Assembly: GCA_001803225.1 (NCBI GenBank)
Contig: MHBF01000168.1
Coordinates: 589 to 64,588, forward strand
Direction of reading: 5' to 3'
DNA from: Lentisphaerae bacterium GWF2_44_16
GTDB taxonomy: Bacteria > Verrucomicrobiota > Lentisphaeria > Victivallales > GWF2-45-14
DNA: 64,000 nt
Position 1 is the stretch's first letter; every line of letters starts with the position of its first letter. Both the position numbers and the translations under genes were made by a program. A model generated the notes under the pieces. It saw only the letters and a list, made by a program, of their open reading frames with translations, searched no databases and was not told where the DNA came from. Shown here one piece after another: positions 39,913 to 63,096 of this stretch.

Positions 39913-39917
39913 CTTTC

Positions 39918-48188: not shown

Positions 48189-48217
48189 TTGACAATGCAT
48201 GGTTTTTGTGATATTAT
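48189..48217 (+). promoter_or_regulatory. Sigma70-type promoter of the 48253->63096 operon
   Basis: TTGACA (48189-48194), 17-nt spacer, TATTAT (48212-48217). AAAGGAG SD before the ATG at 48253. Confidence 0.6.
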
Positions 48218-48252
48218 TTATATTGTTATCAAATTAATAAAAAGGAGCGGGA

Positions 48253-49107
48253 ATGGATATTTATCTGAAATCAGTGACGGATTTGCCTGAAAGGATTGCA
48301 AAAAAGACCAGGACTGTAAAGAATACCGAAGAACTTAATGCTTTTATCGCAAGCGGTTTTTGCGATCTTCTCGAGGAGAAACAGAAGAAAAATGAAATAC
48401 TTACTGTAATATGTCCGGTGGGGCCTTTGGACTACAGATATTTCGCGGCGGAAGTAAAAAAACGCAAGCTGAACTGCAGAAACCTTCGCACAATAAACAT
48501 GGATGAATATCTGGATGAAAATGAAAAACTGGTACCGTTCTCGCATCCGCTGAGTTTCAGGCGTTTTATGGAAGAAACATTTTTTTCACATCTTGATAAA
48601 AACGCCCGACCTTCTGATGAAAATATAATCTTTCCCGACCCTGACGCGCCGGAAAAAGTTACGAAACTTATTGATTCGATAGGCGGGGCGGACATTTGCT
48701 GGGCCGGCTTTGGAATTACCGGGCATGTGGCGTTCAATGACCCTCCGCAGATGACGGGCGAAGCGGAAGACCTTGAGAGTTTCCGCAATTGCAAAACACG
48801 CAAAGTAACGATATGCCCGATGGCTACGGCGCAGATGGCAATGGGCGGAACAAACGGCAACTTGGATATCCTTCCAACTCGTGCAGTGACCGTCGGCATG
48901 TATGAGATGCTGAAGAGCAAAAAGTTTCATTTAACGTTCATGCGGAACTGGCATGCCGGTTTGTGGAGAAAGGCCATGTTCGGTCCTGTTGCAAGTTCAT
49001 TCCCCGGTTCATTGCTTCAGGAACACTCCGACTTGAGCATAACGCTTACCGAACTCGCGGCAAAACCTCCAATGGTCAATACCGCCCAGGCAACAGGAGA
49101 GGAGTAA
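48253..49107 (+). CDS. NagB/6-phosphogluconolactonase superfamily protein (glucosamine-6-phosphate deaminase/isomerase-like), paralogue 1
   Basis: INMDEYLDEN and GFGITGHVAFNDPP correspond to the NagB MDEY and G-x-G-x-x-GH-x-AFNEP motifs. It shares PVGP and SHPLSF motifs with 61371-62228. Confidence 0.7.
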   Translation: MDIYLKSVTDLPERIAKKTRTVKNTEELNAFIASGFCDLLEEKQKKNEILTVICPVGPLDYRYFAAEVKKRKLNCRNLRTINMDEYLDENEKLVPFSHPLSFRRFMEETFFSHLDKNARPSDENIIFPDPDAPEKVTKLIDSIGGADICWAGFGITGHVAFNDPPQMTGEAEDLESFRNCKTRKVTICPMATAQMAMGGTNGNLDILPTRAVTVGMYEMLKSKKFHLTFMRNWHAGLWRKAMFGPVASSFPGSLLQEHSDLSITLTELAAKPPMVNTAQATGEE

Positions 49108-49110
49108 AAG

Positions 49111-50010
49111 ATGAAATTTATAAACGCAAAACCGCTTGTTCTTGACGCGCAGATAAGAGGGTACGCCGTACCCGCCCTGAACGCAAATGGCGCGACTTAT
49201 GACATTGCGAGGGCGGCCCTTGAAGCGGCGCAGGAACTTCAGGCCCCTCTGATACTTCAGTCTTATGAGCCGAACCTTGAATACAGGGGCATGAAATATT
49301 TTGTGCAGATGTCAGGACATATCTGTGAGGATTTGGGGATTACGATACCGGTCGCATTGCATGTGGACCACGGGAAAACCTATGAATCCGCTTTAAGGGC
49401 AATGGATGCCGGTTTTACTTCTTACATGTTTGACGCTTCCCATGACCCTCTGGAGGAGAACATAAGAAAAAGCAGAAGGGTATTGGCGCTGGCAAGGGCA
49501 TGGAATGTTTCAATAGAGGCGGAAGTCGGATATGTGAAGGGCAACGAAGCAAAAAAAGAAAAGCAGATCGGCAGAATTCCCGTTCCTGAAAAGCCTGTCA
49601 TTCCTCCCGCGAAAACAAAAATTGAGGAAGCAGTGCGATTTGTAAGTGAAGTTGACGTTGACATGCTTGCGGTATCAGTCGGCACGACGCACGGCGTTTA
49701 CAGGACGCAGTCGGAGATAGATTTTCAGCTTTTGAAAGAGATACGAAGCAAAATAGAGACGCCTCTTGTCCAGCACGGGACATGCGGGATTTCTCTTGAG
49801 GATGTCTCGAAACTGGCAAAGTCGGGAATGTCTAAAATTAATTTTGGAGAAGCGTTCCGTTTTAATTACATAAACTATTTCAATGAACTCACCGACAGCA
49901 TGGAACACCAGTGGCATGCCTGGAAGATAATGCGTGAAATTAAAAACAGGCTGAAAGAAGACATAAAGGAAATCATCTGCGCATTGGGAGCGGACGGAAA
50001 GGCTTTTTAA
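49111..50010 (+). CDS. Class II ketose-bisphosphate aldolase family protein (tagatose/fructose-bisphosphate aldolase-like)
   Basis: GYAVPALNANG, LHVDHGK (Zn ligands), MFDASH, AVSVGTTHG, LVQHGTCG. Confidence 0.85.
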   Translation: MKFINAKPLVLDAQIRGYAVPALNANGATYDIARAALEAAQELQAPLILQSYEPNLEYRGMKYFVQMSGHICEDLGITIPVALHVDHGKTYESALRAMDAGFTSYMFDASHDPLEENIRKSRRVLALARAWNVSIEAEVGYVKGNEAKKEKQIGRIPVPEKPVIPPAKTKIEEAVRFVSEVDVDMLAVSVGTTHGVYRTQSEIDFQLLKEIRSKIETPLVQHGTCGISLEDVSKLAKSGMSKINFGEAFRFNYINYFNELTDSMEHQWHAWKIMREIKNRLKEDIKEIICALGADGKAF

Positions 50011-50011
50011 G

Positions 50012-50965
50012 ATGAAGGGTTACCTGTTCATATTTGCGGCAGTAACAGCGTGGGCGCTGGAATATGTGCTCATAAAAAAAGCGGTGAATGTCATAAACCC
50101 GTTTCTGGCAGGCACCGTTATTTTCATTTTTGTGACGCTTCTGCTGACGCCTTTTATCCTGTTCAGAAGAAATGAAATTCAGTCAATGAAAAAGGCATGG
50201 AAGAATATTTTATGGGTAGGCATAATCGGGGCCTTGTGCAATATATTCTGGCTTTACGGAACGAAATACACTTCCGTTGCTAACGTGTCTATACTTGGAA
50301 GGACGGATGTGCTTTTCACTTTTATTTTTTCCTATTTTGTGTTTCATGAAAAGATCCGCAGGATTGCTCTTTTATGTGTGCCGCTGATGCTTGCGGGGAT
50401 ATTTCTGACATCCTCTGTTGATTTGAGAAACATGGATATTGGAACAGCGGGGGACTGCATGATAATAGTCAGCGCTTTTTTCCTTTCGGTCAACGCATAT
50501 TCGATAAAAAAGGCGATGAAAGACGTTTCGGGAATAGCTGTCGCATTTGCCAATACGCTTATAAATTCTATAATATTTTCATTGCTCGCGCTATTCCAGA
50601 AAGATGCGTGCGAACTTATTCCCGCCGGGAACATTGTTCCTTTTCTGTCATTGGTTTTCTGCGGCCTTTTCTCGTTCGTTTTTTTCGTCTCATATTACGC
50701 CAGCCTGAAGAGACTTCCAGTATGGGAAGTGCGTCTCTTGTGCCTTGGCCTGCCGGTTTTGACTTTTATCGCAAGTTGGATTTTCGGCGAGGGATTTCCA
50801 TCGGGCGTTCAAATTTTGGGAAGCGCGCTGATACTTCTTGGCGCGATGGGCATCATTCTCTCTAATTCCGGCGCAAAAGTCGGAATGGGCCATCTGAAGA
50901 GAATAAAATATATTTTTGCAAATCCCCGAAAGTGGTATTTGCACGGATGTCCAATTTCCCGCTAA
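50012..50965 (+). CDS. EamA/DMT superfamily transporter
   Basis: About ten predicted hydrophobic helices in two EamA-like halves. It starts 1 nt after the aldolase stop. Confidence 0.75.
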   Translation: MKGYLFIFAAVTAWALEYVLIKKAVNVINPFLAGTVIFIFVTLLLTPFILFRRNEIQSMKKAWKNILWVGIIGALCNIFWLYGTKYTSVANVSILGRTDVLFTFIFSYFVFHEKIRRIALLCVPLMLAGIFLTSSVDLRNMDIGTAGDCMIIVSAFFLSVNAYSIKKAMKDVSGIAVAFANTLINSIIFSLLALFQKDACELIPAGNIVPFLSLVFCGLFSFVFFVSYYASLKRLPVWEVRLLCLGLPVLTFIASWIFGEGFPSGVQILGSALILLGAMGIILSNSGAKVGMGHLKRIKYIFANPRKWYLHGCPISR

Positions 50966-51013
50966 GGGCAGGTTTAAGAAAAATTAGGAAATAACTAAAA
51001 CAGGAGAATAATA

Positions 51014-52420
51014 ATGGGAAGCAATGAGAAAATAATCGCGGAACTGGTTGAAAGGGCAAGGGCCGCGCAGTCCCGGATTGAAAATTACAGCCAGGAAGAG
51101 ATTGACGCTGTATGTCTTTCTGTCGCCTGGCAGGTTTACAAGGATGAAAACATAAGGGAATGCGCGAAACTGGCCGTCAGCGAAACAGGGATGGGCAAAT
51201 ACGAAGATAAAATCACCAAGCATAAAGTGAAAGTTCTGGGAGTCCTGCGGGATGTTCTGAATGGAAAAAGCGTTGGGCTTATCGAAGAAGACAGAGATAA
51301 AAAAATAAGGAAGTACGCAAAACCGGTAGGAGTAATCGGGGCGCTTACTCCGGTAACCAATCCCACGGCTACGCCATCCAGCAATGTCATCGCGATACTG
51401 AAGGGCAGGAACGCTGTGATATTCGCCCCGCATCCCAAAGCGAAAAAATCCTGCAAATTTGTTTGCGGGCTCATGAGGGAAGGCTTGAAAAAAGTGGGGG
51501 CCCCTGAAGACTTGGTTTTATACATTGAGGAGCCGAGCGTGGAACTCAGCCAGGAACTCATGAGGCAGGTTGATCTGGCCGTAGCCACAGGGGGCGGCGC
51601 AATGGTCAAGGCCGCGTATTCAAGCGGCACTCCGGCGTACGGCGTCGGCGCCGGAAACCCGGTCATAATAGTGGCGGAAGATGCGGATATAGCGGATGCC
51701 GCGAAAAAAATCATGATAAGCAAAACTTTCGATTACGCGACATCATGCTCTTCGGATAATTCAATTGTCATTCAATCTTCCGTGTTTGACAAAACGCTTG
51801 ACGCGCTCAAAGCCAACGGAGGTTATCTCTGCACAAACGAAGAACGCGACAGGCTGGAAAAATGGATGTGGACGCCAAATCCGAAAACAGGACAGATTGC
51901 CCTCAATCCCAGAATAGTTGCGCAGTCGGCCCTTAAAATAGCTGGCGACGCCGGAATAAAAGTGCCGGAAAACACTTCAATGTTAATGGTAATGGGAGAA
52001 AACCCCGGTGCGGGACACTGGAGCGGAGAAAAACTTTCTCCTGTAATGAGCCTCTGGAAATACGAAGACTTCGAGGAGGCCATTCAGTACCAGGTAAAAA
52101 TGACGAAGTACGCTGGCGAAGGCCACTCCTGCGGAATATTCACTTTCAATGAAGGATACATCAACAGGCTGGCCGTCGGGACAAAGACGAGCCGTATAAT
52201 GGTACGTCAGCCGCAGGCCCCGTCAAACGGGGGGAATTTTTTCAACGGCATGCCGTCAACGGTTACTCTCGGCTGCGGCACCTGGGGAGGCAACATTACA
52301 TCTGAAAACATCACATGGAAGCATTTTATAAATCTTACGTGGGTTTCGGAGCCGTTTCCGCCGGTCAAGCCGTCTGACGAGGACGTCTGGGGCGATTTCT
52401 GGACAAAATACGGTAAATAA
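51014..52420 (+). CDS. CoA-acylating aldehyde dehydrogenase (SucD/EutE/PduP-type)
   Basis: 468 aa. N-terminus ELVERARAAQSRIENYSQEEIDAV. TNPTATPSSN. Catalytic Cys region FDYATSCSSDNSIVIQ (cf. F-D-N-G-x-x-C-A-S-E-Q-S). The size and layout match the acylating rather than the hydrolytic ALDH type. Confidence 0.75.
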   Translation: MGSNEKIIAELVERARAAQSRIENYSQEEIDAVCLSVAWQVYKDENIRECAKLAVSETGMGKYEDKITKHKVKVLGVLRDVLNGKSVGLIEEDRDKKIRKYAKPVGVIGALTPVTNPTATPSSNVIAILKGRNAVIFAPHPKAKKSCKFVCGLMREGLKKVGAPEDLVLYIEEPSVELSQELMRQVDLAVATGGGAMVKAAYSSGTPAYGVGAGNPVIIVAEDADIADAAKKIMISKTFDYATSCSSDNSIVIQSSVFDKTLDALKANGGYLCTNEERDRLEKWMWTPNPKTGQIALNPRIVAQSALKIAGDAGIKVPENTSMLMVMGENPGAGHWSGEKLSPVMSLWKYEDFEEAIQYQVKMTKYAGEGHSCGIFTFNEGYINRLAVGTKTSRIMVRQPQAPSNGGNFFNGMPSTVTLGCGTWGGNITSENITWKHFINLTWVSEPFPPVKPSDEDVWGDFWTKYGK

Positions 52421-52438
52421 AAATAAAGGATTGACGCA

Positions 52439-53563
52439 ATGAAATTGTTTGAATATCAGGCGAAAGATATTTTTGAGGAAGCCGGCATTCCGGTGCCAAA
52501 AAGAAAGCTTATAGAGAGCGCTTCGGGACTTGATGAGGCGCTTTCAGCGACAGGCTTTCCATGTGTTCTCAAGTCGCAGGTGCTTCAGGGCGGCAGAGGC
52601 AAGGCGGGACTTATTCAGTTCGCGAAAACCGGGCAGGAGGCCGCGGAAAAAACCGGCATGCTTTTCTCTCCCGAAAAGAATGTCAGGAAAATCCTTGTCG
52701 AGGAAGCGCTCAAGATAGAGAAGGAGATTTATCTGGCAATAACCATTGATCCTGTTGACTGTTCGGCCCTCATCATGGCATCCTCGGAAGGCGGCATGGA
52801 CATTGAGGAGATTGCCTTGACAAAGCCGGACAGGATAATAAAGGAAAAAGTCAATGTTTTCCGTTCTCTGATGCCGTATCAGGCCCGCAATATAATGTTC
52901 GGCCTGGGGCTTTCGGGGGAAGCTTTCAAGCAGGGCGTGAAAATATTAACGGCCATGTTCGGGCTTTTCAGAAAATATGACGCGGAACTTGTCGAGATAA
53001 ACCCTCTCGCGCTCTGCGGAGACGGCAGGCTGATTGCCGCGGACGGCAAATTCAGCATTGATGACAACGCGTCCTATCGGCAGAAAAATTTTGCGGTATC
53101 CAGGGACCACTTTTCAAACGACATCGAATATGAAGCGTCCCTTGAGGGCATCCCGTATCTGCTCTTTGACGGCAAAATCGGACTGATGTGCGCGGGGGCC
53201 GGGCTTACCAACACAGTGTATGACCTGATAAACCATTACGGTGGCAGCGTATCCAACTATCTTGAATTCGGCGGCCCGAATTACCGGAAGGCGCTGGAGG
53301 CGATGAAATTCACATTGAGGAGCAATCCCAGGGTGATCCTGATTGTTACATTCGGCACAATCGCGAGGGCGGACGTGATGGCGCAGGGAATAGCCGACGC
53401 CATAAAAGAACTGAAGCCTGAAGTCCCGATTGTTACCGCGATACGCGGCACGGGAGAAGAAGACGCAGCAAAAATTTTAAGGGAAATGGGCCTTACGCCT
53501 CTCTCGGACACCGAGGATGCTGTCAGAGAGGCCGTCCGCATTTCTGAAGGAGGTCTGAAATGA
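52439..53563 (+). CDS. Succinate-CoA ligase (ADP-forming) beta-subunit family protein (ATP-grasp)
   Basis: MKLFEYQAKDIFEEAGIPVPKRKL (cf. SucC MNLHEYQAK), VLKSQVLQGGRGKAG, EINPLA, GGPNY. Confidence 0.85.
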   Translation: MKLFEYQAKDIFEEAGIPVPKRKLIESASGLDEALSATGFPCVLKSQVLQGGRGKAGLIQFAKTGQEAAEKTGMLFSPEKNVRKILVEEALKIEKEIYLAITIDPVDCSALIMASSEGGMDIEEIALTKPDRIIKEKVNVFRSLMPYQARNIMFGLGLSGEAFKQGVKILTAMFGLFRKYDAELVEINPLALCGDGRLIAADGKFSIDDNASYRQKNFAVSRDHFSNDIEYEASLEGIPYLLFDGKIGLMCAGAGLTNTVYDLINHYGGSVSNYLEFGGPNYRKALEAMKFTLRSNPRVILIVTFGTIARADVMAQGIADAIKELKPEVPIVTAIRGTGEEDAAKILREMGLTPLSDTEDAVREAVRISEGGLK

Positions 53564-54444
53564 GCATTCTGATAAATAAAAAGACAAAAGTCCTCGTTCA
53601 GGGGATTACCGGCGGCGAAGGCAGTTTCTGGACAAAACACATGCTGGGGCTTGGCACGAATGTCGTTGCCGGAGTAACCCCCGGAAAAGAAGGCCAGAGC
53701 GTTGAAGGAGTAAAAGTTTTCAATACCGTCAAGCATGCCGTTAAGGAAACAGACGCGGACGCGTCGGTGCTTTTCGTTCCGCCCGCGTTTGCTAAGGATG
53801 CCGCGTTCGAAGCGCTTTCGGCGGGAATTAAAAAAGTTGTGATTATAGCCGAAGGCATTCCTATCCATGACGCGATGGAAATACGTTCCGCCGCCATGTC
53901 GGAAGGCGCGATGGTCATAGGAGGCAACACTTCCGGCATAATCACCGCAGGCGAAGCGATGATGGGGATTTTCCCCTACTGGATAGACCGTGTGTATAAA
54001 AAGGGCGACATTGGAGTAATGACTCGCAGCGGCTCCCTTACCAATGAAGTCACGGCAATGCTCATAAAGGCTGGGTTCGGGGTTTCGACACTGGCGGGAG
54101 TGGGCGGGGATGCCGTTCCGTGCACACGTTTTGCGGAGCTCCTTCCGCTGTTCCAGAAAGATAAAAAAACAAGGGCTGTTCTCATGATAGGGGAACTGGG
54201 CGGAACAATGGAGGAAGAAGTCGCCGATGCCATTGAAAGCAAAATATTCACAAAGCCCCTTGTCGCTTTCATCGCCGGGAGGACCGCTCCGAAAGGAAAG
54301 AAGATGGGCCATGCCGGGGCCATTGTCACGGCAGGCAAAGGAACTGTCGATGGAAAAATAAAAGCTCTGGAGAAAGCGGGCGCGCTGACTGCCGCCAGGC
54401 CTTGTCTCGCAGGCGACCTGATGAAGGAGGCATTAGCCCGATGA
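53560..54444 (+). CDS. Succinate-CoA ligase alpha-subunit family protein (CoA-binding, phosphohistidine)
   Basis: MSILINKKTKVLVQGITGGEGSFWTKHML..GTNVVAGVTPGKEG, SRSGSLTNE, and the phosphohistidine loop MGHAGAIV. There is an ATGA overlap with the beta-subunit gene. Confidence 0.9.
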   Translation: MSILINKKTKVLVQGITGGEGSFWTKHMLGLGTNVVAGVTPGKEGQSVEGVKVFNTVKHAVKETDADASVLFVPPAFAKDAAFEALSAGIKKVVIIAEGIPIHDAMEIRSAAMSEGAMVIGGNTSGIITAGEAMMGIFPYWIDRVYKKGDIGVMTRSGSLTNEVTAMLIKAGFGVSTLAGVGGDAVPCTRFAELLPLFQKDKKTRAVLMIGELGGTMEEEVADAIESKIFTKPLVAFIAGRTAPKGKKMGHAGAIVTAGKGTVDGKIKALEKAGALTAARPCLAGDLMKEALAR

Positions 54445-56764: not shown

Positions 56765-56788
56765 GAATAAAAACCAAAAGGTTTTACC

Positions 56789-58762
56789 ATGATGCTCTCG
56801 TCTGATATTGAAAATATTATTTTGCGGGATTCTTCGGAACCGGGGAAATTCGCCGCCGCGGAACTACAGAAATATTTTAAAAAGATTACTGGCAGGAACT
56901 TGCCAGTCATCCGTTCCTCAGACTCCATACGCAAGGAACATTCATTTGTCCTGGAAACGGACGGGATGGAGGCTGAGGACGGATTTAGTATAAAATGTTC
57001 CGACAGAGGAATGAAAATCCAAATAACCGGAGCAAATCCGCGTTCGCTTGTATATGGCGTTTACTATTTCCTTAAAAAGGTTTTCGGGATAAGATGGACT
57101 TCCCCGGGACCCGACGGGGAAATCCTGAAAAAAACATCTCCGGTCAACATAAAAGATTTCCAGGTCAGGGAAAAGGCGATGCTCAAATACCGCGGTTTCT
57201 ATGTGGATTCCGCACAATGCAGCATCACCCCTGAAAACATCGGGGAAATCATAGACTGGATGGCAAAGAATTTCGGGAATTTTATCCTTGTTTCAAGAGT
57301 ATTCTATCCCAAAATCAAAAGGCCTTTGCTGGAAGCATTGAAACAGCGTGGAATGATTCTGGAAGTGGGGCATCACGGTTTTAATTGTTATGTCAATCCA
57401 AGTAAATATTTCAAAAAGCATCCTGAATGGTTTTCCCTGATAAAAGGACAGCGCACTCCCGGGACTTTCCACGCCAATATGGTACATAACAGCCAATTGT
57501 GCACCTCAAACAAGGAATGCGTAGATTTCTATTCAAGGGCATTTCTGGATTATTGGGAGGCGAATCCGGAAATAGATATTCTTGGGATAATCCCCAATGA
57601 CGGCTTCGGCTGGTGCGAGTGTCAGGATTGCATGAAACTTGAACCGAAAAAACTTACTTCGCCCCTACGTAATGAAAATCTCAATTCCCACAAGGACTGG
57701 AAGCTCGGCAGCGGACGCTATCATCATTTTGTGAAGGAAGTATCGGACAGAGTAAGCAGATGTTTTCAGGAAAAGAAAATAGATTTCTGGGCCTATGCGG
57801 GGGTTATCATGCCGAGTCCCATTGTTTCGGAATTCCCGGAAAACGTCATCCTTACAATCGCCCTTTACGAGCGCTGGTATAACTATTCCCTGAATGATCC
57901 GGCTGGCCGGAAAATAAAAGAAAACCTGAACCCGAAACTGGTTGACATCCTGAAAGACTGGAGAAAAAAATTTCCCGGCGAGATAAACATATACGAATAT
58001 TACCAGAAATACATTTGGAGGAGCATGCCCAAATGGATGCCTGAAATCATACGCAACGACATGCGATTCTTCAAAAAGGAAAATCTTCAGGGGGTTCTGT
58101 CCATGGTTGAAAAAGACAACTTCCTGCTTTACGAGATTAATCATCTTTCCCACATGGCAATGAGTTGGTCCGACGCATGGACCAGTGATTCACTGCTTGA
58201 TGATTATTCCGAAACTTCCTTCGGCTCCATGAAGAAAACAATAAAAAATGAAATCAAAAAAGTCATCTCAGCGATGGGGTCTTATGCAAAACTCGGTCCG
58301 CAATATCCCAGAGAACTCACTCCAAACGCGGAAAAGACTTTCAGAAAATTGGAGAAGGATTTCGGCAAAATAGCAAACACCGGAAAACATAAGATGCCGT
58401 TGAAATCCGCAGCAAAACTCGGCAAGTGGGCAAAAAACATGAAACTCACGCATGAACATTTTTCCCTTAACAAATTGTATTACGAGATGCTTGATGCCGT
58501 GAATGAAAAAAACGCATCCGAAGCATTAAAAATACTTGATAAATGGGAAATCGCCAAAAGGCAATTTTATAAAACATTCAATAGCCTTGACGGTACGGGA
58601 GTATGCCTGAGCAATGATTTATGGATATTCGTCTGGAGTAAAAATCTTTTGGAATATGAAGGGATTTTACGCAAGGAATTGGAACAGGCCACAAAAAATC
58701 CGAATGACGATTTCAGCAGTTCCCTGGCAGCGTTAGGGAAACTGCAGGACATCGCGTCATGA
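56789..58762 (+). CDS. DUF4838-type glycosidase-like protein, cytoplasmic (no signal peptide)
   Basis: No hydrophobic N-terminus (MMLSSDIENIILRDSSEPGKF). N-terminal domain AAELQKYFKKITG as in the 42088-44583 paralogue (ANELAYWLGKITD). Core IIPNDGFGWCECQDC. Confidence 0.6.
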   Translation: MMLSSDIENIILRDSSEPGKFAAAELQKYFKKITGRNLPVIRSSDSIRKEHSFVLETDGMEAEDGFSIKCSDRGMKIQITGANPRSLVYGVYYFLKKVFGIRWTSPGPDGEILKKTSPVNIKDFQVREKAMLKYRGFYVDSAQCSITPENIGEIIDWMAKNFGNFILVSRVFYPKIKRPLLEALKQRGMILEVGHHGFNCYVNPSKYFKKHPEWFSLIKGQRTPGTFHANMVHNSQLCTSNKECVDFYSRAFLDYWEANPEIDILGIIPNDGFGWCECQDCMKLEPKKLTSPLRNENLNSHKDWKLGSGRYHHFVKEVSDRVSRCFQEKKIDFWAYAGVIMPSPIVSEFPENVILTIALYERWYNYSLNDPAGRKIKENLNPKLVDILKDWRKKFPGEINIYEYYQKYIWRSMPKWMPEIIRNDMRFFKKENLQGVLSMVEKDNFLLYEINHLSHMAMSWSDAWTSDSLLDDYSETSFGSMKKTIKNEIKKVISAMGSYAKLGPQYPRELTPNAEKTFRKLEKDFGKIANTGKHKMPLKSAAKLGKWAKNMKLTHEHFSLNKLYYEMLDAVNEKNASEALKILDKWEIAKRQFYKTFNSLDGTGVCLSNDLWIFVWSKNLLEYEGILRKELEQATKNPNDDFSSSLAALGKLQDIAS

Positions 58763-58824
58763 CGATGCTGGCAAATATCTAATGGATTGCGATGCTAAAA
58801 TAAAAATATAAGGAGAATCACATT

Positions 58825-59769
58825 ATGAATTGGCATGAAATGGAAATGAGAGCGGTATATGGAGAAACCCTCATTGAATTGATGGATGAAAACCCGAATG
58901 TGCTCTGTGTTGAAGCCGATCTGAGCAAGGCATCGGGAACGAACCCTAAAGTCATCCAGAAGCACCCCGATAAATTCGTCAATTGCGGAGTGGCAGAGGC
59001 AAACATGATCAGCATCGGAGCCGGACTTGCAAAAGAAGGTAAAATACCTTTTTGTGCGAGTTTCAGCTGCTTTGCGTCAAGGAGAGTTTATGACCAGGCT
59101 ACCATTAGCGTGGCCTACGCGAACAACAATGTAAAAATAGTCGGCACTGCTCCGGGAATCACGCAGGGGCCCAACGGCGGAACCCATATGTGCTTTCAGG
59201 ATTTAGCCATAATGCGCATAATACCTAACATGCATGTTTACAGTCCATGTGATGTTTATGAGTTGAGGGCCATGATGAAATATATGGCATCCCATAAACA
59301 CCCGGTTTATATGCAGCTTATCAGGCCGAAAGTTGGAAAAATCTTTGATGACTCGTATGTTTTTAATCCCGAAAAAGCTGTTGTCCTCAGAGAGGGCACA
59401 GATCTTACTCTTGTTTCGACCGGCTACATGACACAGTTCACTCCGCAGGTTGCGGCGGAACTGGAAAAAAAAGGAATAAGCGTTGAACTGTTGCACTATC
59501 CCTCTGTAAAACCGCTTGATGAAAAAACACTTATTGCTTCTGCCCGTAAAACCGGAGCGGTCGTAACGGTGGAAAATCAGAATATTCTAGGTGGATTGGG
59601 CGGGGCAGTATGTGAAGTCCTAAGTGAAAAATATCCGGTAAAGATAAAAAGACTTGGCATCCCTGATCGCTTCGGGGAAGTCGCTACGGAAAAATATCTT
59701 TTTGACAAACATGGTTTCGGCCCGGAGCATATCGCTGAAGCATGCAGAAAAATGGCGCATAGCATATAA
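58825..59769 (+). CDS. Transketolase, C-terminal (pyrimidine-binding plus C-terminal domain) subunit
   Basis: FVNCGVAEANMISIGAGLAKEGKIPF, GPNGGTHMCFQDLAIMRIIPNMHVYSPCD, VTVENQNILGGLG. Confidence 0.9.
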   Translation: MNWHEMEMRAVYGETLIELMDENPNVLCVEADLSKASGTNPKVIQKHPDKFVNCGVAEANMISIGAGLAKEGKIPFCASFSCFASRRVYDQATISVAYANNNVKIVGTAPGITQGPNGGTHMCFQDLAIMRIIPNMHVYSPCDVYELRAMMKYMASHKHPVYMQLIRPKVGKIFDDSYVFNPEKAVVLREGTDLTLVSTGYMTQFTPQVAAELEKKGISVELLHYPSVKPLDEKTLIASARKTGAVVTVENQNILGGLGGAVCEVLSEKYPVKIKRLGIPDRFGEVATEKYLFDKHGFGPEHIAEACRKMAHSI

Positions 59770-59786
59770 AAAGGAGAATATCTTCG

Positions 59787-60284
59787 ATGAAAATAATTAT
59801 GGGATCGGTTGTGAGAGGCTTCACGCTGAAAAATGCGTTAAAGGCGTATCTTGAAAAACAGGGGCATGAAATTATTGATGTAGGCTGTCATCAGACTGAC
59901 AGGTTTGTAAAATTCACTTCCATCGCGGAGCGCATAGCAAAGGCGTTGCAGGAAGGCGCGGCGCCTCTCGCGATAAGCTGTTGCGGAAGCGGCACCGGAG
60001 CGAATATCTGCGCCAACAAGTTCAAGAATATTTCCGCGGTCTGCTGTGAATCGGAACTGGTCGCCCGCTTCGCGCGCCTTGTCAATGACTGTAATTGCCT
60101 CTGCCTCGGAGAGTCTGTCGTAACGCCGGAAATGGCGTGCAGGATTGCTGATATTTTCATTTCCACAAATTTTCAGGACGCCAAGGGCACCCCTCAGGAT
60201 ATATTGGATTTCTGGAAAGAGGCCAGGGATGAAGCCATGGGCAGAGGAATTAATGCGGAAACAAGAGAAATTGAAACTTTATAA
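59787..60284 (+). CDS. RpiB/LacA/LacB family sugar-phosphate isomerase-like protein, atypical active site
   Basis: MKIIMGSVVRGFTLKNALKAYLEKQGHEIIDVG and SCCGSGTGANICANK match the family fold and Cys motif. The canonical G-x-D-H-x-G reads GSVVRG, and HND reads VND. Confidence 0.7.
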   Translation: MKIIMGSVVRGFTLKNALKAYLEKQGHEIIDVGCHQTDRFVKFTSIAERIAKALQEGAAPLAISCCGSGTGANICANKFKNISAVCCESELVARFARLVNDCNCLCLGESVVTPEMACRIADIFISTNFQDAKGTPQDILDFWKEARDEAMGRGINAETREIETL

Positions 60285-60302
60285 TATTAATAAGACTGGA
60301 GA

Positions 60303-61355
60303 ATGGTCAGAATGAAAAAGATAAGGTATGGATTGATTGGCGCAGGACAGATGGCGGCGGGACATCTCGGATGTATTAAAGCCATCGGCGATATGGTTGA
60401 ACTGGTGGCTGTGGCAGAAAACTATCCGAAGAACCTTGAAAGTTTCAAGTCGGCAAATGACAATCCCAAAACAAAATATTTCACCGATTACAGGGAACTT
60501 CTGGAACTGGACGAAGTGGACGCGGTAATAATCGCCACCCCGGACAACACCCATGTTGATATCGTGCTTGACACAGTTGCCGCCGAAAAACATGTGCTCT
60601 CCGAAAAACCCGCGGCAACCAGCTTCAAGGATTTGGAAAGGCTGGAAAAGGCCGTCAAAAAATCGAAGAAGATTTATCAGGTCGGACTGGAATGCAGATA
60701 CCTGCCTGTCTTCCAAAGAATGAAAAGCATCATATCAAACGGCACAGTCGGTTCGCCAAGACTGCTATGGTGCAAGGAATTCAGGGGGCCGTTTGCGCAG
60801 AAGGTCAACAACTGGATAATGTTCAAGGATAAAAGCGGCGGTACATTTGTGGAAAAGACCTGCCATTACTTCGACCTGATGACATGGTTCGCGGATTCTG
60901 TCCCCAAAAAAGTCATTGCCCTTGCAGGGCAGGATGTAGTAAAAGATATTTATGGCGTAAAGCCTGATGTTTATGACAACGGATGGGTAACTATCGAATA
61001 TAAAAATGGGGCCCGCGCAAACCTCGGTCTCTGCATGTTCTGTGAATGTGAATATGACATCGAAATGGGCGTAATCGGAGAAAAAGCCGTGATGGAGGGA
61101 TTTTTCCAGAAACGCAAAATAGACATCCGCGAATACAAAACAAATTCACGGGTAACGCATGATATAAAATACGAAGACCGCATCGAAAAACTCAGCCACG
61201 GCGGCGGCGTTTATTTCGAGCATATCGCGTTTGTGGAAAACATAAGGAAAAACAAGCGTCCGCTTACCAACATTGAAGTTGCCAAGTGGAGCACCCTCGT
61301 AGGACTGGCCGCCGAAGAGTCCGCCGCGAATGGCGGCAAAGCTGTAACTTTCTGA
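60303..61355 (+). CDS. Gfo/Idh/MocA family oxidoreductase
   Basis: IRYGLIGAGQMAAGH, VIIATPDNTHVDIVLDTVAAEKHVLSEKP. ATG 60312 has the better SD spacing (GGAGA 9 nt upstream), so the start may be 9 nt downstream. Confidence 0.9.
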   Translation: MVRMKKIRYGLIGAGQMAAGHLGCIKAIGDMVELVAVAENYPKNLESFKSANDNPKTKYFTDYRELLELDEVDAVIIATPDNTHVDIVLDTVAAEKHVLSEKPAATSFKDLERLEKAVKKSKKIYQVGLECRYLPVFQRMKSIISNGTVGSPRLLWCKEFRGPFAQKVNNWIMFKDKSGGTFVEKTCHYFDLMTWFADSVPKKVIALAGQDVVKDIYGVKPDVYDNGWVTIEYKNGARANLGLCMFCECEYDIEMGVIGEKAVMEGFFQKRKIDIREYKTNSRVTHDIKYEDRIEKLSHGGGVYFEHIAFVENIRKNKRPLTNIEVAKWSTLVGLAAEESAANGGKAVTF

Positions 61356-61370
61356 TTCAGGAGAAAACAA

Positions 61371-62228
61371 ATGTACGCGACAGCAGATAGGGCGATGGAG
61401 ATAAGAAAACTTCAGAAATTATCTTCCCGTGAACTGATAAAAAAGGCGGGGAAGTGGATGGAAGTATTTAATACATGCGATGACATACACAGGCGCATCG
61501 CCGAAGATATGGCCGCTTTCATAAAATCGCAAAACAGAAAAGGTGAAAAGACCCGTTTCATCCTGCCGGTCGGCCCTGTCGGGCAGTATCCCTTTTTTCT
61601 GGAACTCGTCCGCAGAGATAAAATAAGTCTCAAAAACTGCTGGTTCTTTTATATGGATGAATATGCCGACAGTTCAGGGATTGCATTTCCGCCTTCTCAT
61701 CCGTTGAGCTTTCAGGGGGAAATGAAAAAACTGTGGATTGACAGGCAGGACAAGAAACTTGCTATCCCGCAGGAACAGATTTTTTTCCCTAACGAAAAAA
61801 ATGTTCACTTGCTGGCTGAAGGCATAAACAGGCTTGGTGGCATCGACATTTGTTTTGGAGGCGTAGGCATACATGGACATCTTGCGTTCAACGAACCGGA
61901 GCCGCGTGTCGAAAAAAGTGGCCCACGCCTTGTTTATCTGAATGACTATACAACCACAATAAATGCGATACGTTCGAAAGTGGGGGGTAACCTTGAAGGT
62001 TTTCCAAGAAAAGCCTATACTCTGGGCATGGACCAGATACTTGGAGCAAGGAAAATACGCCTGGCCTGCCGGAACGGCATAGCCCTCGACTGGGCAAATA
62101 CCGTTCTCCGCCTGGCCCTTCTGGGAGAAATCGGTGAGGATTATCCTTGCACACTGGTAAGGAAACACAAAGATTATATTATTTATACGGACAAAAATAC
62201 TGTTGCGCAACCTGAAATCATACTTTAA
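61371..62228 (+). CDS. NagB/6-phosphogluconolactonase superfamily protein (deaminase/isomerase-like), paralogue 2
   Basis: FYMDEYADSS, GGVGIHGHLAFNEPEP. Shares ILPVGPVGQY and SHPLSF with 48253-49107. Confidence 0.7.
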   Translation: MYATADRAMEIRKLQKLSSRELIKKAGKWMEVFNTCDDIHRRIAEDMAAFIKSQNRKGEKTRFILPVGPVGQYPFFLELVRRDKISLKNCWFFYMDEYADSSGIAFPPSHPLSFQGEMKKLWIDRQDKKLAIPQEQIFFPNEKNVHLLAEGINRLGGIDICFGGVGIHGHLAFNEPEPRVEKSGPRLVYLNDYTTTINAIRSKVGGNLEGFPRKAYTLGMDQILGARKIRLACRNGIALDWANTVLRLALLGEIGEDYPCTLVRKHKDYIIYTDKNTVAQPEIIL

Positions 62229-62241
62229 CGGAGGATTGGCG

Positions 62242-63096
62242 ATGTTTTCTTCTGACATTATGTGCTTCGAGATTAATTCCAGAAAGAACGTAAGAAAAAT
62301 AGACGTTCATCATCATCTGGCGGAAGAAGAAAATTATGTTGAAAATCTTCTCAAGGAAATGGACCGTCATGAAATTGAAAAATCCTCCCTCATAGGCTTG
62401 GGCCCGCTTTTCAAAGGGCTCTTTGTCAAAGGAAAACATGACGGCACATGCGCCGACAACACGGCTGTTGAAAAGGTTTTCAGGAAATATCCCGACCGCT
62501 TTTTCGGGCTGGGATTTGTCAGGCTTGGCGTGGACTCGCCGCCCCTGGTCGATGAACTTCATGAAAAGGGTTTTGCAGGATTGAAGTTCACTATCCCTAA
62601 AAAACGCTACGACGATGAAGGATACTTCCCCGTCTATCAGAAAGCCCAGGAATTAAAAATGCCCTGTCTATTCCACACCGGCATTGTAAAACTGCCATGC
62701 GCCTGCCCGGGGGAAAGGGTATCGTCCTTCAATATGGATTGCATCCATCTTGAAGCAATCGCTCAGGAGTTCCCGGAACTGAAAATCATCATAGCTCATC
62801 TCGGTGTTCAGAATTATCTGACGGCGCTCACGCTCGTGCGCCTCTTCCCAAATATTTATGCGGACCTTTCCGGCAGCACCCCTGGCTGGAGAGCAAATCT
62901 TACCATGGAAGAATGGAGAAAATATCTCTGGTTCCCGAATGCCAGCGAAAAACTCCTTTTCGGCACTGACGTCCATTTCTGCGAATTTTCCCGCAACATT
63001 GATATCTACGAAAAAATCATAGCCGCGGCAAACTGGAATAAAATACAAAGAGAAAACATCTTCTATAAAAACAGTTCTAAAATATTTTCCATTTAA
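62242..63096 (+). CDS. Metal-dependent amidohydrolase (Amidohydro_2-like TIM barrel)
   Basis: IDVHHHL (HxH metal site), LFHTG, IIIAHLG, FGTDV. Start set at ATG 62242 behind a GGAGGA SD. Confidence 0.7.
   Translation: MFSSDIMCFEINSRKNVRKIDVHHHLAEEENYVENLLKEMDRHEIEKSSLIGLGPLFKGLFVKGKHDGTCADNTAVEKVFRKYPDRFFGLGFVRLGVDSPPLVDELHEKGFAGLKFTIPKKRYDDEGYFPVYQKAQELKMPCLFHTGIVKLPCACPGERVSSFNMDCIHLEAIAQEFPELKIIIAHLGVQNYLTALTLVRLFPNIYADLSGSTPGWRANLTMEEWRKYLWFPNASEKLLFGTDVHFCEFSRNIDIYEKIIAAANWNKIQRENIFYKNSSKIFSI

Follow-up and report, generated by a model that had tools for sequence, protein, structure and literature searches.

Which sugar pathway could be encoded by a 14-gene operon that contains a split transketolase, an aldolase-like and two NagB-like proteins, and no kinase or PTS component? 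This question is raised by a stretch of 64,000 nucleotides (the window) from an uncultured groundwater Lentisphaerae bacterium. Family searches of the 14 products detected neither a kinase nor a PTS family, as stated in a preliminary description of this DNA, whose family calls (PF01116, EamA, ALDH, SucC-/SucD-like, DASS, transketolase halves, DUF4838, LacAB_rpiB, Gfo/Idh/MocA and Amidohydro_2) also hold. We consider it fairly probable that the operon represents sulfo-TK sulfoglycolysis, with its sulfoacetate- and ATP-forming branch, in an uncultured Lentisphaerae-like bacterium.

The 14 open reading frames (positions 48253-63096) all lie on the forward strand (Table 1), and the gaps from g1 to g14 are 3, 1, 48, 18, -4, -4, 20, 24, 62, 17, 18, 15, and 13 nt when the likeliest starts are used for g7 (ATG 54441) and g14 (ATG 62242), which are those of the public contig calls; the range of -4 to +62 nt given earlier is thus borne out. 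Both -4 overlaps (g5/g6 and g6/g7) are ATGA stop/start junctions preceded by GAAGGAGG, and therefore translation of the two ligase subunits and of the DASS permease is coupled, as had been proposed. The near-consensus promoter described before the operon matches 11 of 12 consensus positions and shares the best score in 47900-63500 with an intragenic site at 50547; promoter-like sites are not enriched as a class (28 found vs 22 +/- 5 in shuffles), and this one is, by consensus match only, a sigma-70-like candidate. The divergent ROK gene is likewise present. Its product has weak NCBIfam matches to Mlc/NagC and is extended at the N-terminus by some 85 aa, while neither the glycine-rich ATP motif of ROK kinases nor the zinc motif CxCGxxGC is visible by eye. 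Orthologues (45-74% identity) are also divergent in several related loci (L010-L014, L091, L095), and the protein is probably the regulator of the operon.

Table 1. Features of the locus, with positions in the window; Sqw-type labels (here and in the text, for g4, g5, g8, g10, and g11) are predictions made from gene family.
Feature	Position	Strand	Length (aa)	Basis
Promoter-like site TTGACA-17 nt-TATTAT, upstream TG (extended -10), 36 nt before g1	48189..48217	+		Consensus match
ROK-family protein, divergent from operon	46931..48091	-	386	PF00480
g1, NagB-a	48253..49107	+	284	NCBIfam nagB, solved NagB structures
g2, class II aldolase-fold protein	49111..50010	+	299	PF01116, 250 bits
g3, EamA/DMT transporter	50012..50965	+	317	PF00892, two repeats
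g4, CoA-acylating aldehyde dehydrogenase, SauS/SqwD-like	51014..52420	+		NCBIfam NF047625
g5, SucC-like beta (ATP-grasp) subunit, ADP-forming acyl-CoA ligase	52439..53563	+		PF08442 + PF00549
g6, SucD-like alpha (CoA-binding) ligase subunit	53560..54444	+		PF02629 + PF00549
g7, DASS divalent-anion permease	54441..55895	+	484	PF00939, 175 bits
g8, transketolase N-terminal (thiamine diphosphate-binding) half, SqwG-type	55916..56764	+		PF00456, 187 bits
g9, DUF4838 glycosidase-like protein	56789..58762	+	657	PF16126, 115 bits
g10, transketolase pyrimidine-binding + C-terminal half, SqwH-type	58825..59769	+		PF02779 + PF02780
g11, RpiB/LacAB-family isomerase, SqwI-type	59787..60284	+	165	PF02502, 127 bits
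g12, GH188-type NAD+-dependent glycosidase homologue (SqgA family), Cys136 clade	60303..61355	+		Gfo/Idh/MocA
g13, NagB-b	61371..62228	+	285	NCBIfam nagB, solved NagB structures
g14, Amidohydro_2 metal hydrolase	62242..63096	+	284 (from ATG 62242)	PF04909, 81 bits

The enzymes that define sulfo-TK, a split transketolase and a PF02502 isomerase (PMC9594981), are present and conserved in the Lentisphaerae operon. Orthologues of g8 occur in all complete sister clusters (63-80% identity), and those of g10 show 73-81% identity. The g11 protein scores 110 bits against the TIGR00689 subfamily (cut-off 88) and 110 bits against the rpiB equivalog, under its cut-off of 139. Its catalytic Cys motif CGSGTG is found in 12 of the 13 sequences aligned, the most distant having CGTGAG, and where the canonical motif of the family is GSDHAG, all 12 orthologues have GS/A-x-x-K/R-G. 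We suppose that g11 may convert 4-deoxy-4-sulfoerythrose into sulfoerythrulose.

The branch following the transketolase is indicated by the g4-g7 cassette. For g4, the best model is NF047625, "acylating sulfoacetaldehyde dehydrogenase" (SauS; E 2e-158, 528 bits), followed by AdhE (418 bits), in a collection that may have no model for CoA-acylating succinate-semialdehyde dehydrogenases, close relatives of this family; g4 would form sulfoacetyl-CoA from sulfoacetaldehyde. The g5 protein, probably of the SqwK/SauC type, stays under the cut-offs of the SucC models (331 and 325 bits vs 376 and 370). Two scores count against the sulfoacetate reading: g6 slightly passes the cut-off of the SucD equivalog NF004230 (345 vs 336 bits), and g4 remains below the SauS cut-off of 600. 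The permease g7 (229 bits against TIGR00785, cut-off 199) belongs to a family whose gene always accompanies the ALDH-ligase cassette in related loci, and it may serve for sulfoacetate export or exchange. The whole module (aldehyde dehydrogenase, two-subunit ADP-forming ligase, DASS permease) is the same as SauS-SauCD-SauI of B. wadsworthia, where the permease SauI is also part of the SauS-SauCD cluster and SauCD proved specific for sulfoacetate (PMC10413351).

This set of genes is found again in at least 12 independent loci (Lentisphaerae, Victivallales, Kiritimatiellota, and other MAGs), so its clustering is not due to chance. In a distant genome (L094), 12 of the 14 genes have relatives (37-74% identity) that are clustered in another order, the gene for the transketolase N-terminal half lying past the end of the sequence examined. 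Moreover, the set varies in a modular way: among 12 non-redundant PVC-type related loci carrying transketolase, six have the ALDH-ligase-DASS cassette and the other six have Fe-ADH, with TauE in five of these (none was found in L024), while no locus combines the two. This swap mirrors the alternative between sulfoacetate and isethionate formation in the described sulfo-TK pathways (SqwD/SqwKL vs SqwF/SqwE; PMC9594981; PMC12890257), since Fe-ADH and TauE are SqwF/SqwE-type families. The sulfoacetate variant, previously credited to Liu et al. 2021, was only proposed by these authors; its characterisation is due to Chu et al. 2023 (AEM; PMC12890257). Together, the SauS match of g4, the cassette swap, and the likeness to SauS-SauCD-SauI support the idea of a kinase-less sulfo-TK pathway gaining ATP from a CoA thioester.

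In such a pathway the sulfonate would stand in for the phosphate, making a kinase unnecessary, and the changes in g2 strengthen this assumption. It had been described as a class II ketose-bisphosphate aldolase; it scores below every NCBIfam equivalog cut-off, and among solved structures it is closest to the class II sulfofructose-1-phosphate aldolases SqiA (8q58/8q57), with S. aureus FBA approximately equal. The Zn ligands His83/180/208 as well as Asp82 and Asn230 are retained, while the pocket is altered (Gly210 to Thr, Ser211 to Cys, Asp232 to Gly, Thr233 to Glu). Ser211 and Thr233 are ligands of the 1-phosphate pocket (PMC10665668); both are lost in g2 and a Glu is gained, so the side chains holding the 1-phosphate are missing. 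The motif HGT[CGS]G occurs in 26 of 26 sequences matching g2 (46-100% identity; duplicate records and the contig of the window itself are counted) and K[IV]NFGE in 25, the exception being L032 (46% identity). Probably, g2 is no bisphosphate aldolase, and it may work as an aldolase or epimerase on a ketose that lacks a C1 phosphate.

A similar loss is seen in g1. The two proteins described as NagB-like, g1 and g13, indeed match NCBIfam nagB (E 4e-23 and 2e-23) and solved NagB structures (B. subtilis 2bkv at 1e-18 for g1; 4e-15 for g13), but their 82-83 bits are far from the cut-off of 237, and neither has a Pfam match at E <= 0.01; they are 28% identical to each other. In g1, the equivalents of Asp72 and His143 are retained and Glu148 is replaced by Asp, the phosphate ligands are changed (Arg172 to Gly198, Lys208 to His234), and Arg231/Trp233 are new invariant residues, whereas g13 retains all of Asp72, His143, and Glu148. 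The absence of the NagB phosphate ligands from g1, of the 1-phosphate ligands from g2, and of GSDHAG from g11 fits substrates other than sugar phosphates and the absent kinase.

The entry steps are new with respect to the described pathways, and this supports the suggestion of a new variant: the known sulfoquinovose isomerases SqvD (PF02952) and YihS, as well as SqvB, are absent from the window, and the operon has instead g1, g13, the PF04909 protein g14, g2, and the DUF4838 protein g9. More than 1000 homologues of g1 (65-85% identity) are spread across PVC MAGs, and its orthologues adjoin those of g2 in nearly all loci. We regard g1 as a candidate isomerase or deaminase yielding the 6-sulfo-ketose; however, five loci have distant SftI-like isomerases alongside NagB-a, so it is no simple SqvD replacement. 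Orthologues of g13 are paired with those of g14 in L015, L028, L030, and L091. The amidohydrolase assignment of g14 stands at the level of PF04909, but the protein is not NagA-like and belongs to the lactonase/decarboxylase/hydratase branch. It has no NCBIfam match, its solved relatives are weak (3cjp at 4e-5; LigW/LigJ-type enzymes), and 14 orthologues share its HxH, His, His, and Asp motifs. A second PF04909 type, 39-44% identical to g14, pairs with g1 and g2 in L016, L017, L026, L027, and L094. Perhaps g14 is a deacetylase, a lactonase, or a sugar ring-opening enzyme or isomerase; for g1, g2, g13, and g14 alike, the proposed function is a guess. The transporter g3, whose orthologues come after g2 in most related loci, is a candidate for uptake of the sulfosugar, free or as its glycoside.

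The identity of the sugar may be approached through the glycosidase-like genes. The Gfo/Idh/MocA gene had been placed outside the described pathway; in fact, g12 is a homologue of the GH188 NAD+-dependent sulfoquinovosidases and hence not foreign to sulfoquinovose catabolism. Its best solved relatives are SqgA structures (8qc3/8qc2, E 3e-46), 20 orders of magnitude ahead of the next (1e-26), and it retains the equivalents of Lys107, Arg166, Lys172, Glu189, His193, and His321, among which Arg166 and Lys172 bind the sulfonate and the Lys, Glu, and two His are catalytic in GH188 (PMC10755693). Tyr136 is replaced by Cys131, as in almost all of about 45 relatives (>= 49% identity), while the GH188 member in the L094 cluster shows the complete canonical signature, Tyr136 included. 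Sulfoquinovose is the most conservative guess for the substrate.

An N-acylated amino-sulfosugar or a (6-O-)sulfated hexosamine also has some support. Sulfoquinovose is no amino sugar, and the NagB-type catalytic residues, the paired amidohydrolases, the ROK regulator, and the HexNAc-type glycosidases nearby point to one. The g9 gene, placed between the two transketolase half genes, encodes a protein with no visible signal peptide, weak NAGLU_N/GH67N matches besides PF16126, and invariant His196, Asp271, and Tyr404; in L094 and L095, relatives (44-48% identity) are located within a cluster of this type or next to it. Foldseek with its AF2 model (pLDDT 92.3) places GH115/GH67 alpha-glucuronidases on top, followed by GH20, GH89, and GH84, including the 6S-GlcNAcase Bt4394. 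A sulfonate and a sulfate ester are not distinguishable from sequence, which alone would be compatible with sulfoquinovose, an amino-sulfosugar, and a 6-O-sulfated hexosamine. The cytoplasmic DUF4838 enzymes, which include a proven 6-sulfo-GlcNAcase, GH185 (PMC10570127), lend some support to the amino-sulfosugar or sulfated-hexosamine reading.

The families of the genes, the retention or loss of active-site residues, and the fact that the set recurs with its modules exchanged are observed directly; no RNA run containing the locus was found, and from these observations we infer the chemical steps, the transport directions, and the sugar. In the proposed sulfo-TK pathway, a 6-sulfo-hexose glycoside would be imported, possibly by g3, and the sugar released in the cytoplasm by g12 and g9 would be turned into a fructose-configured 6-sulfo-ketose via g1, g13, g14, and g2. 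The split transketolase (g8 and g10) would transfer C1-C2 to glyceraldehyde 3-phosphate, g11 would turn the residual 4-carbon sulfo-aldose into a ketose, and a second transketolase round would leave sulfoacetaldehyde. The latter would be oxidised by g4 to sulfoacetyl-CoA, from which g5 and g6 would form sulfoacetate and ATP, and sulfoacetate would leave via g7. Most likely, the operon would degrade a sugar carrying sulfur in two-carbon steps and obtain ATP from the sulfonated remainder.

The operon is best read as a transketolase-type sulfoglycolytic (sulfo-TK) pathway of PVC type with the branch that leads to sulfoacetate and ATP, a reading that we consider probable on the basis of gene content and alignments. 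The preliminary description had pointed to a kinase-less run of 14 genes, and this observation holds for the ORFs, their spacing and their families alike. Fourteen plus-strand ORFs (g1-g14) fill the operon when the starts of the public contig are used (ATG 54441 for the DASS permease gene and ATG 62242 for the last gene), and the successive intergenic gaps from g1 to g14 are 3, 1, 48, 18, -4, -4, 20, 24, 62, 17, 18, 15 and 13 nt. ATGA overlaps occur at the ligase beta/alpha and alpha/DASS junctions, with GAAGGAGG ahead of each. No terminator-like site was found in the intergenic gaps, and no kinase or PTS family is represented among the 14 products.

Features of the window and family assignments of the operon products, which are listed in gene order
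Feature	Position	Strand	Content or family
Left-end genes	43-10981		BNR/sortilin-like, LacI, second ROK (4512-5699), DUF1559 proteins, 819-aa CBM/F5-F8 protein
GH20-like hexosaminidase	8969-10981
Minus-strand cluster	11299-17793	-	Ceramidase-like, Gfo/Idh/MocA, AP_endonuc_2, M19 dipeptidase, C26 glutamine amidotransferase-like peptidase, GntR
Plus-strand cluster	18241-25610	+	Gfo/Idh/MocA, M20 peptidase, Asp/Glu racemase, four small DUF1559/N-methyl proteins, beta-eliminating lyase
Large protein	25645-31380	+	1911 aa; only weak GH42, GH42M and CBM_4_9 matches, in the C-terminal third
Second glycan-processing cluster, divergent from the operon	32001-46670	-	LacI, N-methyl (pseudopilin-like), 831-aa DUF4838 with GH2_N-like domain, two DegT/DnrJ/EryC1 aminotransferases, two Gfo/Idh/MocA, ceramidase-like, 952-aa CBM9, LamG proteins
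ROK gene	46931-48091	-	386 aa, divergent to the operon
Promoter-like site	48189-48217	+	TTGACA-17-TATTAT with TG; best consensus score in the region, tied with one intragenic site (50547)
Operon g1-g14	48253-63096	+	14 ORFs
g1 (NagB-a)		+	NagB-like
g2		+	Class II aldolase, PF01116
g3		+	EamA
g4		+	ALDH
g5, g6		+	SucC- and SucD-like
g7		+	DASS
g8, g10		+	Transketolase in two halves: g8 PF00456; g10 PF02779 and PF02780
g9		+	DUF4838, PF16126, 115 bits
g11		+	LacAB_rpiB, PF02502, 127 bits
g12		+	Gfo/Idh/MocA
g13 (NagB-b)		+	NagB-like
g14		+	Amidohydro_2, PF04909
Response-regulator receiver gene	63341-63766	+	141 aa; own promoter-like site at 63294

The products of g1 and g13, which are 28% identical to each other, have no Pfam match; both match the NCBIfam model nagB (E about 1e-23, 82-83 bits against a cut-off of 237) and solved NagB structures. 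The contig comes from a groundwater metagenome (SRR1658473, PRJNA268031), the nearest relative of g1 belongs to ‘Lentisphaerae bacterium GWF2_45_14’ (83% identity), and DUF1559/N-methyl proteins, which are typical of PVC bacteria, are dispersed across the window. All sequencing runs with the locus are of DNA, and no RNA runs were found among them. The short receiver gene begins 244 nt 3' of the operon.

As summarised in PMC9594981 and PMC12890257, the sulfoacetate variant of sulfo-TK (SqvD, SqvB, SqwGH, SqwI, SqwD, SqwKL) was proposed by Liu et al. 2021 and characterised in Acholeplasma sp. by Chu et al. 2023. The likeness of the operon to this pathway, drawn at the level of families, extends to a split thiamine-diphosphate transketolase of the SqwGH type (g8/g10), which is conserved in the sister clusters, to a PF02502 isomerase (SqwI, here g11) retaining its catalytic Cys motif, and to a candidate CoA-acylating ALDH of the SauS type combined with a putatively SqwKL-like two-subunit ADP-forming ligase in the absence of a kinase. 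Also shared are the alternative ending with an iron alcohol dehydrogenase (Fe-ADH) and TauE (SqwF/SqwE type), which is seen in sister loci, and a sulfoquinovosidase within the cluster, represented by the GH188 homologue g12, although with Tyr136 replaced by Cys. The core chemistry is already known, whereas the entry enzymes, glycosidases, transporters, regulator and host lineage differ from those described. Instead of the GH31 glycosidase YihQ, the window has a GH188-like protein and a DUF4838 protein; its transporters are EamA and DASS, and its regulator is ROK rather than CsqR. In place of the entry enzymes SqvD and SqvB there are two NagB-like proteins, PF04909 amidohydrolase(s) and an aldolase-fold protein without the 1-phosphate pocket. 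The sulfo-TK hosts named in reviews are Firmicutes, Spirochaetes, Thermotogae and Tenericutes, while the host here is of PVC type.

The comparison of exchangeable cassettes is the strongest argument for a C2 sulfo-aldehyde end. When 80 genome loci with the g1 family and several metagenome contexts were scored with the window proteins, a transketolase was present in 12 non-redundant loci. The ALDH-ligase-DASS cassette occurs in half of them (the window and the related loci L006, L013, L026, L033 and L094), and an iron alcohol dehydrogenase takes its place in the other six (L012, L024, L028, L091, L093 and L095), five of which also have a TauE-family exporter, with none found in L024. Both cassettes together were found in none of the 12 loci. 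The described sulfo-TK endings are SqwF with SqwE, leading to isethionate, and SqwD with SqwKL, leading to sulfoacetate and ATP (PMC9594981; PMC12890257), and the two cassettes of the sister loci are, as judged from their gene families, the putative equivalents of these two endings.

For g4, the best NCBIfam model is the acylating sulfoacetaldehyde dehydrogenase SauS (528 bits, below the curated cut-off of 600), ahead of AdhE (418 bits) and the EutE-type models (346 and 230). The beta subunit of the ligase (g5) is under the SucC cut-offs of NCBIfam, and the alpha subunit (g6) is just over that of SucD. In B. wadsworthia, SauS and SauCD cluster with SauI, a permease of the sodium:sulfate symporter family, and SauCD is an ADP-forming ligase that takes sulfoacetate and none of the other acids tried (PMC10413351). 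Genes g4-g7 represent the same four families in a row. However, the Bilophila module is reductive (sulfoacetate is imported and converted into isethionate and sulfite) and adjoins TauF and IseGH, while the window module adjoins the transketolase and would be oxidative, yielding ATP and exporting its product. The region 51014-56764, which comprises the cassette and the N-terminal transketolase half (g4-g8), has a G+C content of 0.49-0.53 and a GC3 of 0.57-0.60, compared with a window average of 0.42 and with 0.43-0.47 in the flanking operon genes; this hints that the cassette may be mobile or exchanged between genomes.

The best solved relatives of g12 are 8qc3 (E 3e-46) and 8qc2 (2e-45), followed by an unnamed structure, 8zn9 (1e-42), the next match being at 1e-26. 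8QC2 and 8QC3 are the NAD+-dependent sulfoquinovosidases SqgA, the founders of GH188 (PMC10755693), and against the solved GH188 enzymes the HMMER domain score of g12 is about 160 bits. The two proteins share the two-domain Gfo/Idh/MocA fold, the length of the sulfonate loop and a place in a sulfosugar catabolic cluster lacking a GH31 sulfoquinovosidase. Equivalents of the catalytic and sugar-binding residues are kept in g12 (Lys107 = Lys102, Glu189 = Glu184, His193 = His188, His321 = His299), as are the sulfonate binders (Arg166 = Arg161, Lys172 = Lys167), while Leu170, which makes a backbone contact only, is replaced by Ala and Tyr136 by Cys131. In SqgA, Tyr136 has been implicated in catalysis and contacts sulfoquinovose by binding its C2 hydroxyl (PMC10755693). 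Cys is present at this position in almost all of the approximately 45 relatives at no less than 49% identity, with Leu, Gly, Met or Val in the few exceptions; Leu, Met or Tyr takes its place in more distant relatives, and the classical Tyr type is found at 30-38% identity. Cys136 marks a distinct clade of about 45 PVC-type sequences, and orthologues of g12 (61-67% identity) are found in the sister clusters L012, L033 and L093.

The entry into the pathway departs from the described gene sets. SqvD/SftI (PF02952), YihS and SqvB (DUF4867) are absent from the 14 products and from the remaining window ORFs of 200 aa or more, all but one of which were scanned or annotated. Only a part of the sister loci has distant SftI-like genes, which occur together with NagB-a in five loci; the highest-scoring NCBIfam model for them is ‘sulfoquinovose isomerase’ (156-173 bits, cut-off 700). 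A role of the NagB-like proteins as a plain replacement of SqvD was rejected because of this co-occurrence. We also rejected g12 and g14 as a pair of sugar dehydrogenase and lactonase, since g12 is GH188-like and its adjacency to g14 is not conserved, and the ROK protein as the missing kinase, since it has an N-terminal extension of the DNA-binding type and no visible ATP or zinc motifs.

The two NagB paralogues are paired with different PF04909 proteins, NagB-b with the g14 type and NagB-a, along with the aldolase, with a second type (39-44% identical), and the neighbours include GH123, PIG-L, SGSH-like sulfatases and GH20. By analogy, this pairing, the ROK regulator and the HexNAc-type neighbours recall the logic of amino-sugar degradation by NagA/NagB. 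The NagA/NagB and Aga systems with NagC (ROK) have in common with the window a pair of amidohydrolase-superfamily and NagB-fold proteins, a class II aldolase, a ROK regulator and nearby HexNAc-type glycosidases. Asp72, His143 and Glu148, the catalytic residues of E. coli NagB, have equivalents throughout in g13, and in g1 the first two are kept while Glu148 is replaced by Asp. However, the amidohydrolase belongs to PF04909 and not to PF01979, the family of NagA, g1 lacks the phosphate ligands of NagB, the scores are well under the nagB cut-off, kinase and PTS are absent, and the set is coupled to a transketolase and a sulfoacetaldehyde-type module.

These features are relevant to an alternative that retains the same carbon-cutting and changes the substrate, namely a sulfatase-independent glycolysis of 6-O-sulfated sugars in which the sulfate ester stands in for phosphate throughout; we regard it as possible but doubtful. 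Its substrate may be an N-acetylhexosamine with a 6-O-sulfate group (GlcNAc-6-sulfate and/or GalNAc-6-sulfate), derived from glycans that resemble mucin or glycosaminoglycans, perhaps also Gal/Glc-6-sulfate, or, alternatively, an undescribed 2-amino-6-sulfonated sugar. The cytoplasmic DUF4838 protein g9, likened to a GH185 6-sulfo-GlcNAcase, and the GH188-like g12 may free the sugar, a PF04909 amidohydrolase may strip the acetyl group and the NagB-like enzymes, with a specificity for the sulfated form, may deaminate the product to a ketose 6-sulfate, with the phosphate-free class II aldolase-fold enzyme fixing the configuration (tagatose to fructose) as an epimerase or acting as an aldolase. 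Two transketolase cuts, with the RpiB-like isomerase acting between them, would then release 2-sulfooxyacetaldehyde, which may be oxidised to 2-sulfooxyacetate with ATP gain and exported.

In favour of this route are the retained deaminase residues of both NagB-like proteins, the separate amidohydrolase partner of each paralogue, as in NagA/NagB, the regulator of NagC type and the HexNAc- or sulfate-directed neighbours (GH123, PIG-L deacetylase and SGSH-like sulfatases in the sister clusters and GH20 in the window). The Cys of the g12 clade at the position that binds the C2 hydroxyl of sulfoquinovose points the same way, and the co-occurrence of SftI-like isomerases with NagB-a implies that NagB-a does something else. 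Against it, 2-hydroxy sugars are the substrates of these isomerases, which are present in L093, L090 and L024, the sulfonate loop of g12 is as long as that of SqgA, the cluster of L094 has a GH188 of the Tyr type with the full canonical signature, and the sulfatases of two loci would make the route needless. N-deacetylases are not known in PF04909, and our literature search found no description of any step of such a pathway.

The glycosidase candidate g9 provides a further point in its favour. This protein of about 650 aa has the N-terminus MMLSSDIENIILRDSSEPGK, which by eye has no hydrophobic leader; it shares PF16126 with GH185 (Sp_0475; PMC10570127) and GH163 (BT1035) and, being without a signal peptide, resembles the cytoplasmic ‘cluster 3’ of GH185. 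For Sp_0475, which is itself a cytoplasmic DUF4838 enzyme, exo-6-sulfo-beta-GlcNAcase activity is proven, and the sulfated substrate is preferred 110,000-fold (PMC10570127). The AF2 model of g9 (pLDDT 92) has GH115 as its first structural neighbour, followed by GH67, GH20, GH89 and GH84, so that the predicted neighbourhood is the same as that reported for Sp_0475 (GH115 first, then GH20/GH84). A sequence search found no solved relative. Residues highlighted in Sp_0475 are Gln174, His227, Asp309, Tyr436 and the sulfate-binding Arg633 (PMC10570127); the invariant His196/Asp271/Tyr404 of g9 have a spacing similar to His227/Asp309/Tyr436, a likeness of spacing only. The location of g9 between the two transketolase halves is a context undescribed for GH185 or GH163. 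At 57600-57640 (g9 residues 269-281) there is a stretch conserved in the DUF4838 family, P-N-D-G-F-G-W-C-E-C-x-x-C, in which Cys276 and Cys278 are kept in 35 of 39 DUF4838 sequences; this suggests a putative metal or redox site adjoining the invariant Asp271. Sp_0475 was reported to require a reductant (PMC10570127).

The preliminary idea of an aminated or sulfated 6-sulfo sugar thus stays alive at a low probability, being favoured by the NagA/NagB-like features and the likeness to GH185 and disfavoured by PF04909, the g12 loop and the GH188 of L094. The suggestion that the accessory genes are foreign to the pathway core was not upheld: as L094 and L095 show, they travel with the core. L094, from an unclassified MAG with PVC-type DUF1559 proteins, contains in an order differing from that of the window the C-terminal transketolase half, ALDH, SucC, SucD, DASS, RpiB-like and Amidohydro_2 genes, together with an aldolase-like gene, NagB-a, GH188, a DUF4838 gene 44% identical to g9, and NagB-b. 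In L095, a relative of g9 (48%) adjoins the ROK gene of a cluster of the Fe-ADH/TauE type.

Other related loci show further arrangements. In L093 (1-21113), the cluster is a variant that comprises an SGSH-like sulfatase, two DUF4838 genes, a Cys-type GH188, Fe-ADH, transketolase, an RpiB-like gene, two AP_endonuc_2 genes (sugar epimerase/isomerase fold), an SftI-like isomerase and TauE; NagB-a and aldolase genes were not found in this stretch, and a relative of NagB-b (53%) lies at its left edge. The NagB/amidohydrolase/DUF4838 module also exists alone: L008 and L015 have NagB-a, a PF04909 amidohydrolase, a sodium:solute symporter and two or three DUF4838 genes, with no transketolase or aldolase within 10 kb. 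Directly after the cluster of L006, genes for Rrf2, two proteins of the PAPS-reductase family, CysN/C, sulfite reductase and sirohaem synthesis occupy 12438-20858, and assimilatory sulfate/sulfite reduction here adjoins the sulfosugar operon.

In the window itself, the second glycan-processing cluster may be linked to the function of the operon, for example via an N-acylated amino sugar, because its trio of DegT, ceramidase-like and Gfo genes also occurs in L090, where it adjoins NagB-a and the aldolase. The two clusters between the left-end genes and the 1911-aa protein appear to serve the breakdown of a glycan that carries peptides or amino acids. The GH20 gene of the window is followed by a URO-D fragment of 105 aa, and full URO-D genes are located between the RpiB and NagB-a genes in L006 and near the GH188 gene in L092.

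Three enzymes of the operon have altered phosphate sites. The NagB phosphate ligands Arg172 and Lys208 are replaced in g1 by Gly198 and His234, with Arg231 and Trp233 as new invariant residues, and the alignment of g13 is gapped at Lys208. The isomerase g11 keeps the catalytic Cys motif and scores 110 bits with the rpiB equivalog (cut-off 139), while the position of GSDHAG, the canonical N-terminal motif of RpiB, reads GSVVRG in the window and GS/A-x-x-K/R-G in orthologues. The best solved relatives of g2 (E 7e-43, a score no better than against ordinary FBP aldolases) are the class II sulfofructose-1-phosphate aldolases SqiA of sulfo-EMP2 (8Q57-8Q5A; PMC10665668), with which g2 shares the sulfosugar cluster setting and the zinc His trio. 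YaSqiA binds the 1-phosphate through two side chains, those of Ser211 and Thr233, and through three amides, those of Gly181, Gly210 and Asp232 (PMC10665668). When aligned to 8q57/8q58, g2 keeps the zinc ligands His83, His180 and His208 along with Asp82 and Asn230, but its 1-phosphate pocket is rebuilt (Gly210Thr, Ser211Cys, Asp232Gly, Thr233Glu), and its operon has no sulfofructose kinase. All 26 matching sequences share the motif HGT[CGS]G, and 25 also have K[IV]NFGE, which L032 (46% identity) lacks. An ordinary extra FBP aldolase regenerating GAP was rejected as the role of g2, its 1-phosphate ligands being replaced in the orthologues. These changes in g1, g2 and g11 are signs of enzymes that presumably do not bind phosphate; they fit the absence of a kinase and argue against a kinase or PTS elsewhere feeding sugar phosphates into the operon.

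Such feeding is what a second alternative supposes: an amino sugar phosphorylated by a kinase or PTS encoded elsewhere would pass to the NagB-like enzymes and the class II aldolase, and the same operon would also encode transketolase and RpiB as additional enzymes of the pentose phosphate pathway, together with a dicarboxylate permease and a module that connects succinate semialdehyde, succinyl-CoA and succinate. Sugar phosphates are the usual substrates of all soluble enzyme families present, dicarboxylates are common cargo of DASS permeases, and the SucD score of g6 would agree with this scheme. The family of g4 includes CoA-acylating succinate-semialdehyde dehydrogenases, and BwSauS was once annotated as such (PMC10413351). 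Nevertheless, we consider it very improbable: apart from the changes among orthologues in g1 (Arg172, Lys208), g2 (Ser211, Thr233 and the gained Glu) and g11 (GSDHAG), kinase and PTS genes are absent from the approximately 12 related clusters inspected, a GH188 sulfoquinovosidase homologue lies within the operon, there is no evident route from the transketolase product to succinate semialdehyde, and the exchange of the ALDH cassette for Fe-ADH and TauE would be senseless for a succinate branch.

Hardly credible is the idea that the transketolase route serves a different sugar with an anionic C6, for instance a hexuronate, with glyoxylate or a related acid aldehyde as the C2 remainder passing through a CoA thioester (e.g., to oxalate) to DASS export: GH115/GH67 alpha-glucuronidases are the nearest structural neighbours of g9, DASS cargo includes tricarboxylates as well as dicarboxylates and uronate isomerase belongs to the amidohydrolase superfamily, but uronate-pathway genes are absent, the SauS match, the TauE partner in sister loci and the GH188 sulfonate dyad indicate sulfur and not carboxylate, and FlSqgA, a characterised GH188, is inactive on a glucuronide (PMC10755693).

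Recent surveys define sulfo-TK by SqvD/SftI, SqwGH and SqwI (PMC13372026), and PVC taxa go unmentioned in two recent environmental studies of sulfoquinovose, this one included. Our literature search found no link of sulfoquinovose to Lentisphaerae, of NagB-like proteins to sulfoquinovose or of 6-sulfo-GlcNAc to a transketolase. The turnover of sulfoquinovose makes up a large part of sulfur cycling. A gene set without the marker isomerase would be missed by marker-based surveys, and NagB-a alone has over 1000 homologues, which come from metagenomes of groundwater, sediment, wastewater and other sources; therefore Lentisphaerae, Victivallales and Kiritimatiellota may form sulfoacetate and isethionate, on which sulfite-respiring bacteria feed, and may have been overlooked in this role.

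For researchers of sulfosugar metabolism, the sulfo-TK-like operon is of interest as a source of four or five candidate new activities, including a NagB-fold enzyme whose anion site is rebuilt, a class II aldolase-fold enzyme without the phosphate pocket, the Cys136 clade of GH188 and a transketolase-tied DUF4838 glycosidase. Should the substrate be a sulfated or aminated sugar, the logic of the sulfo group as a phosphate surrogate would reach past sulfoquinovose, and if it is specifically a 6-O-sulfated sugar, the operon would represent a new entry of host- or algal-derived sulfated glycans into central metabolism, with several new activities.
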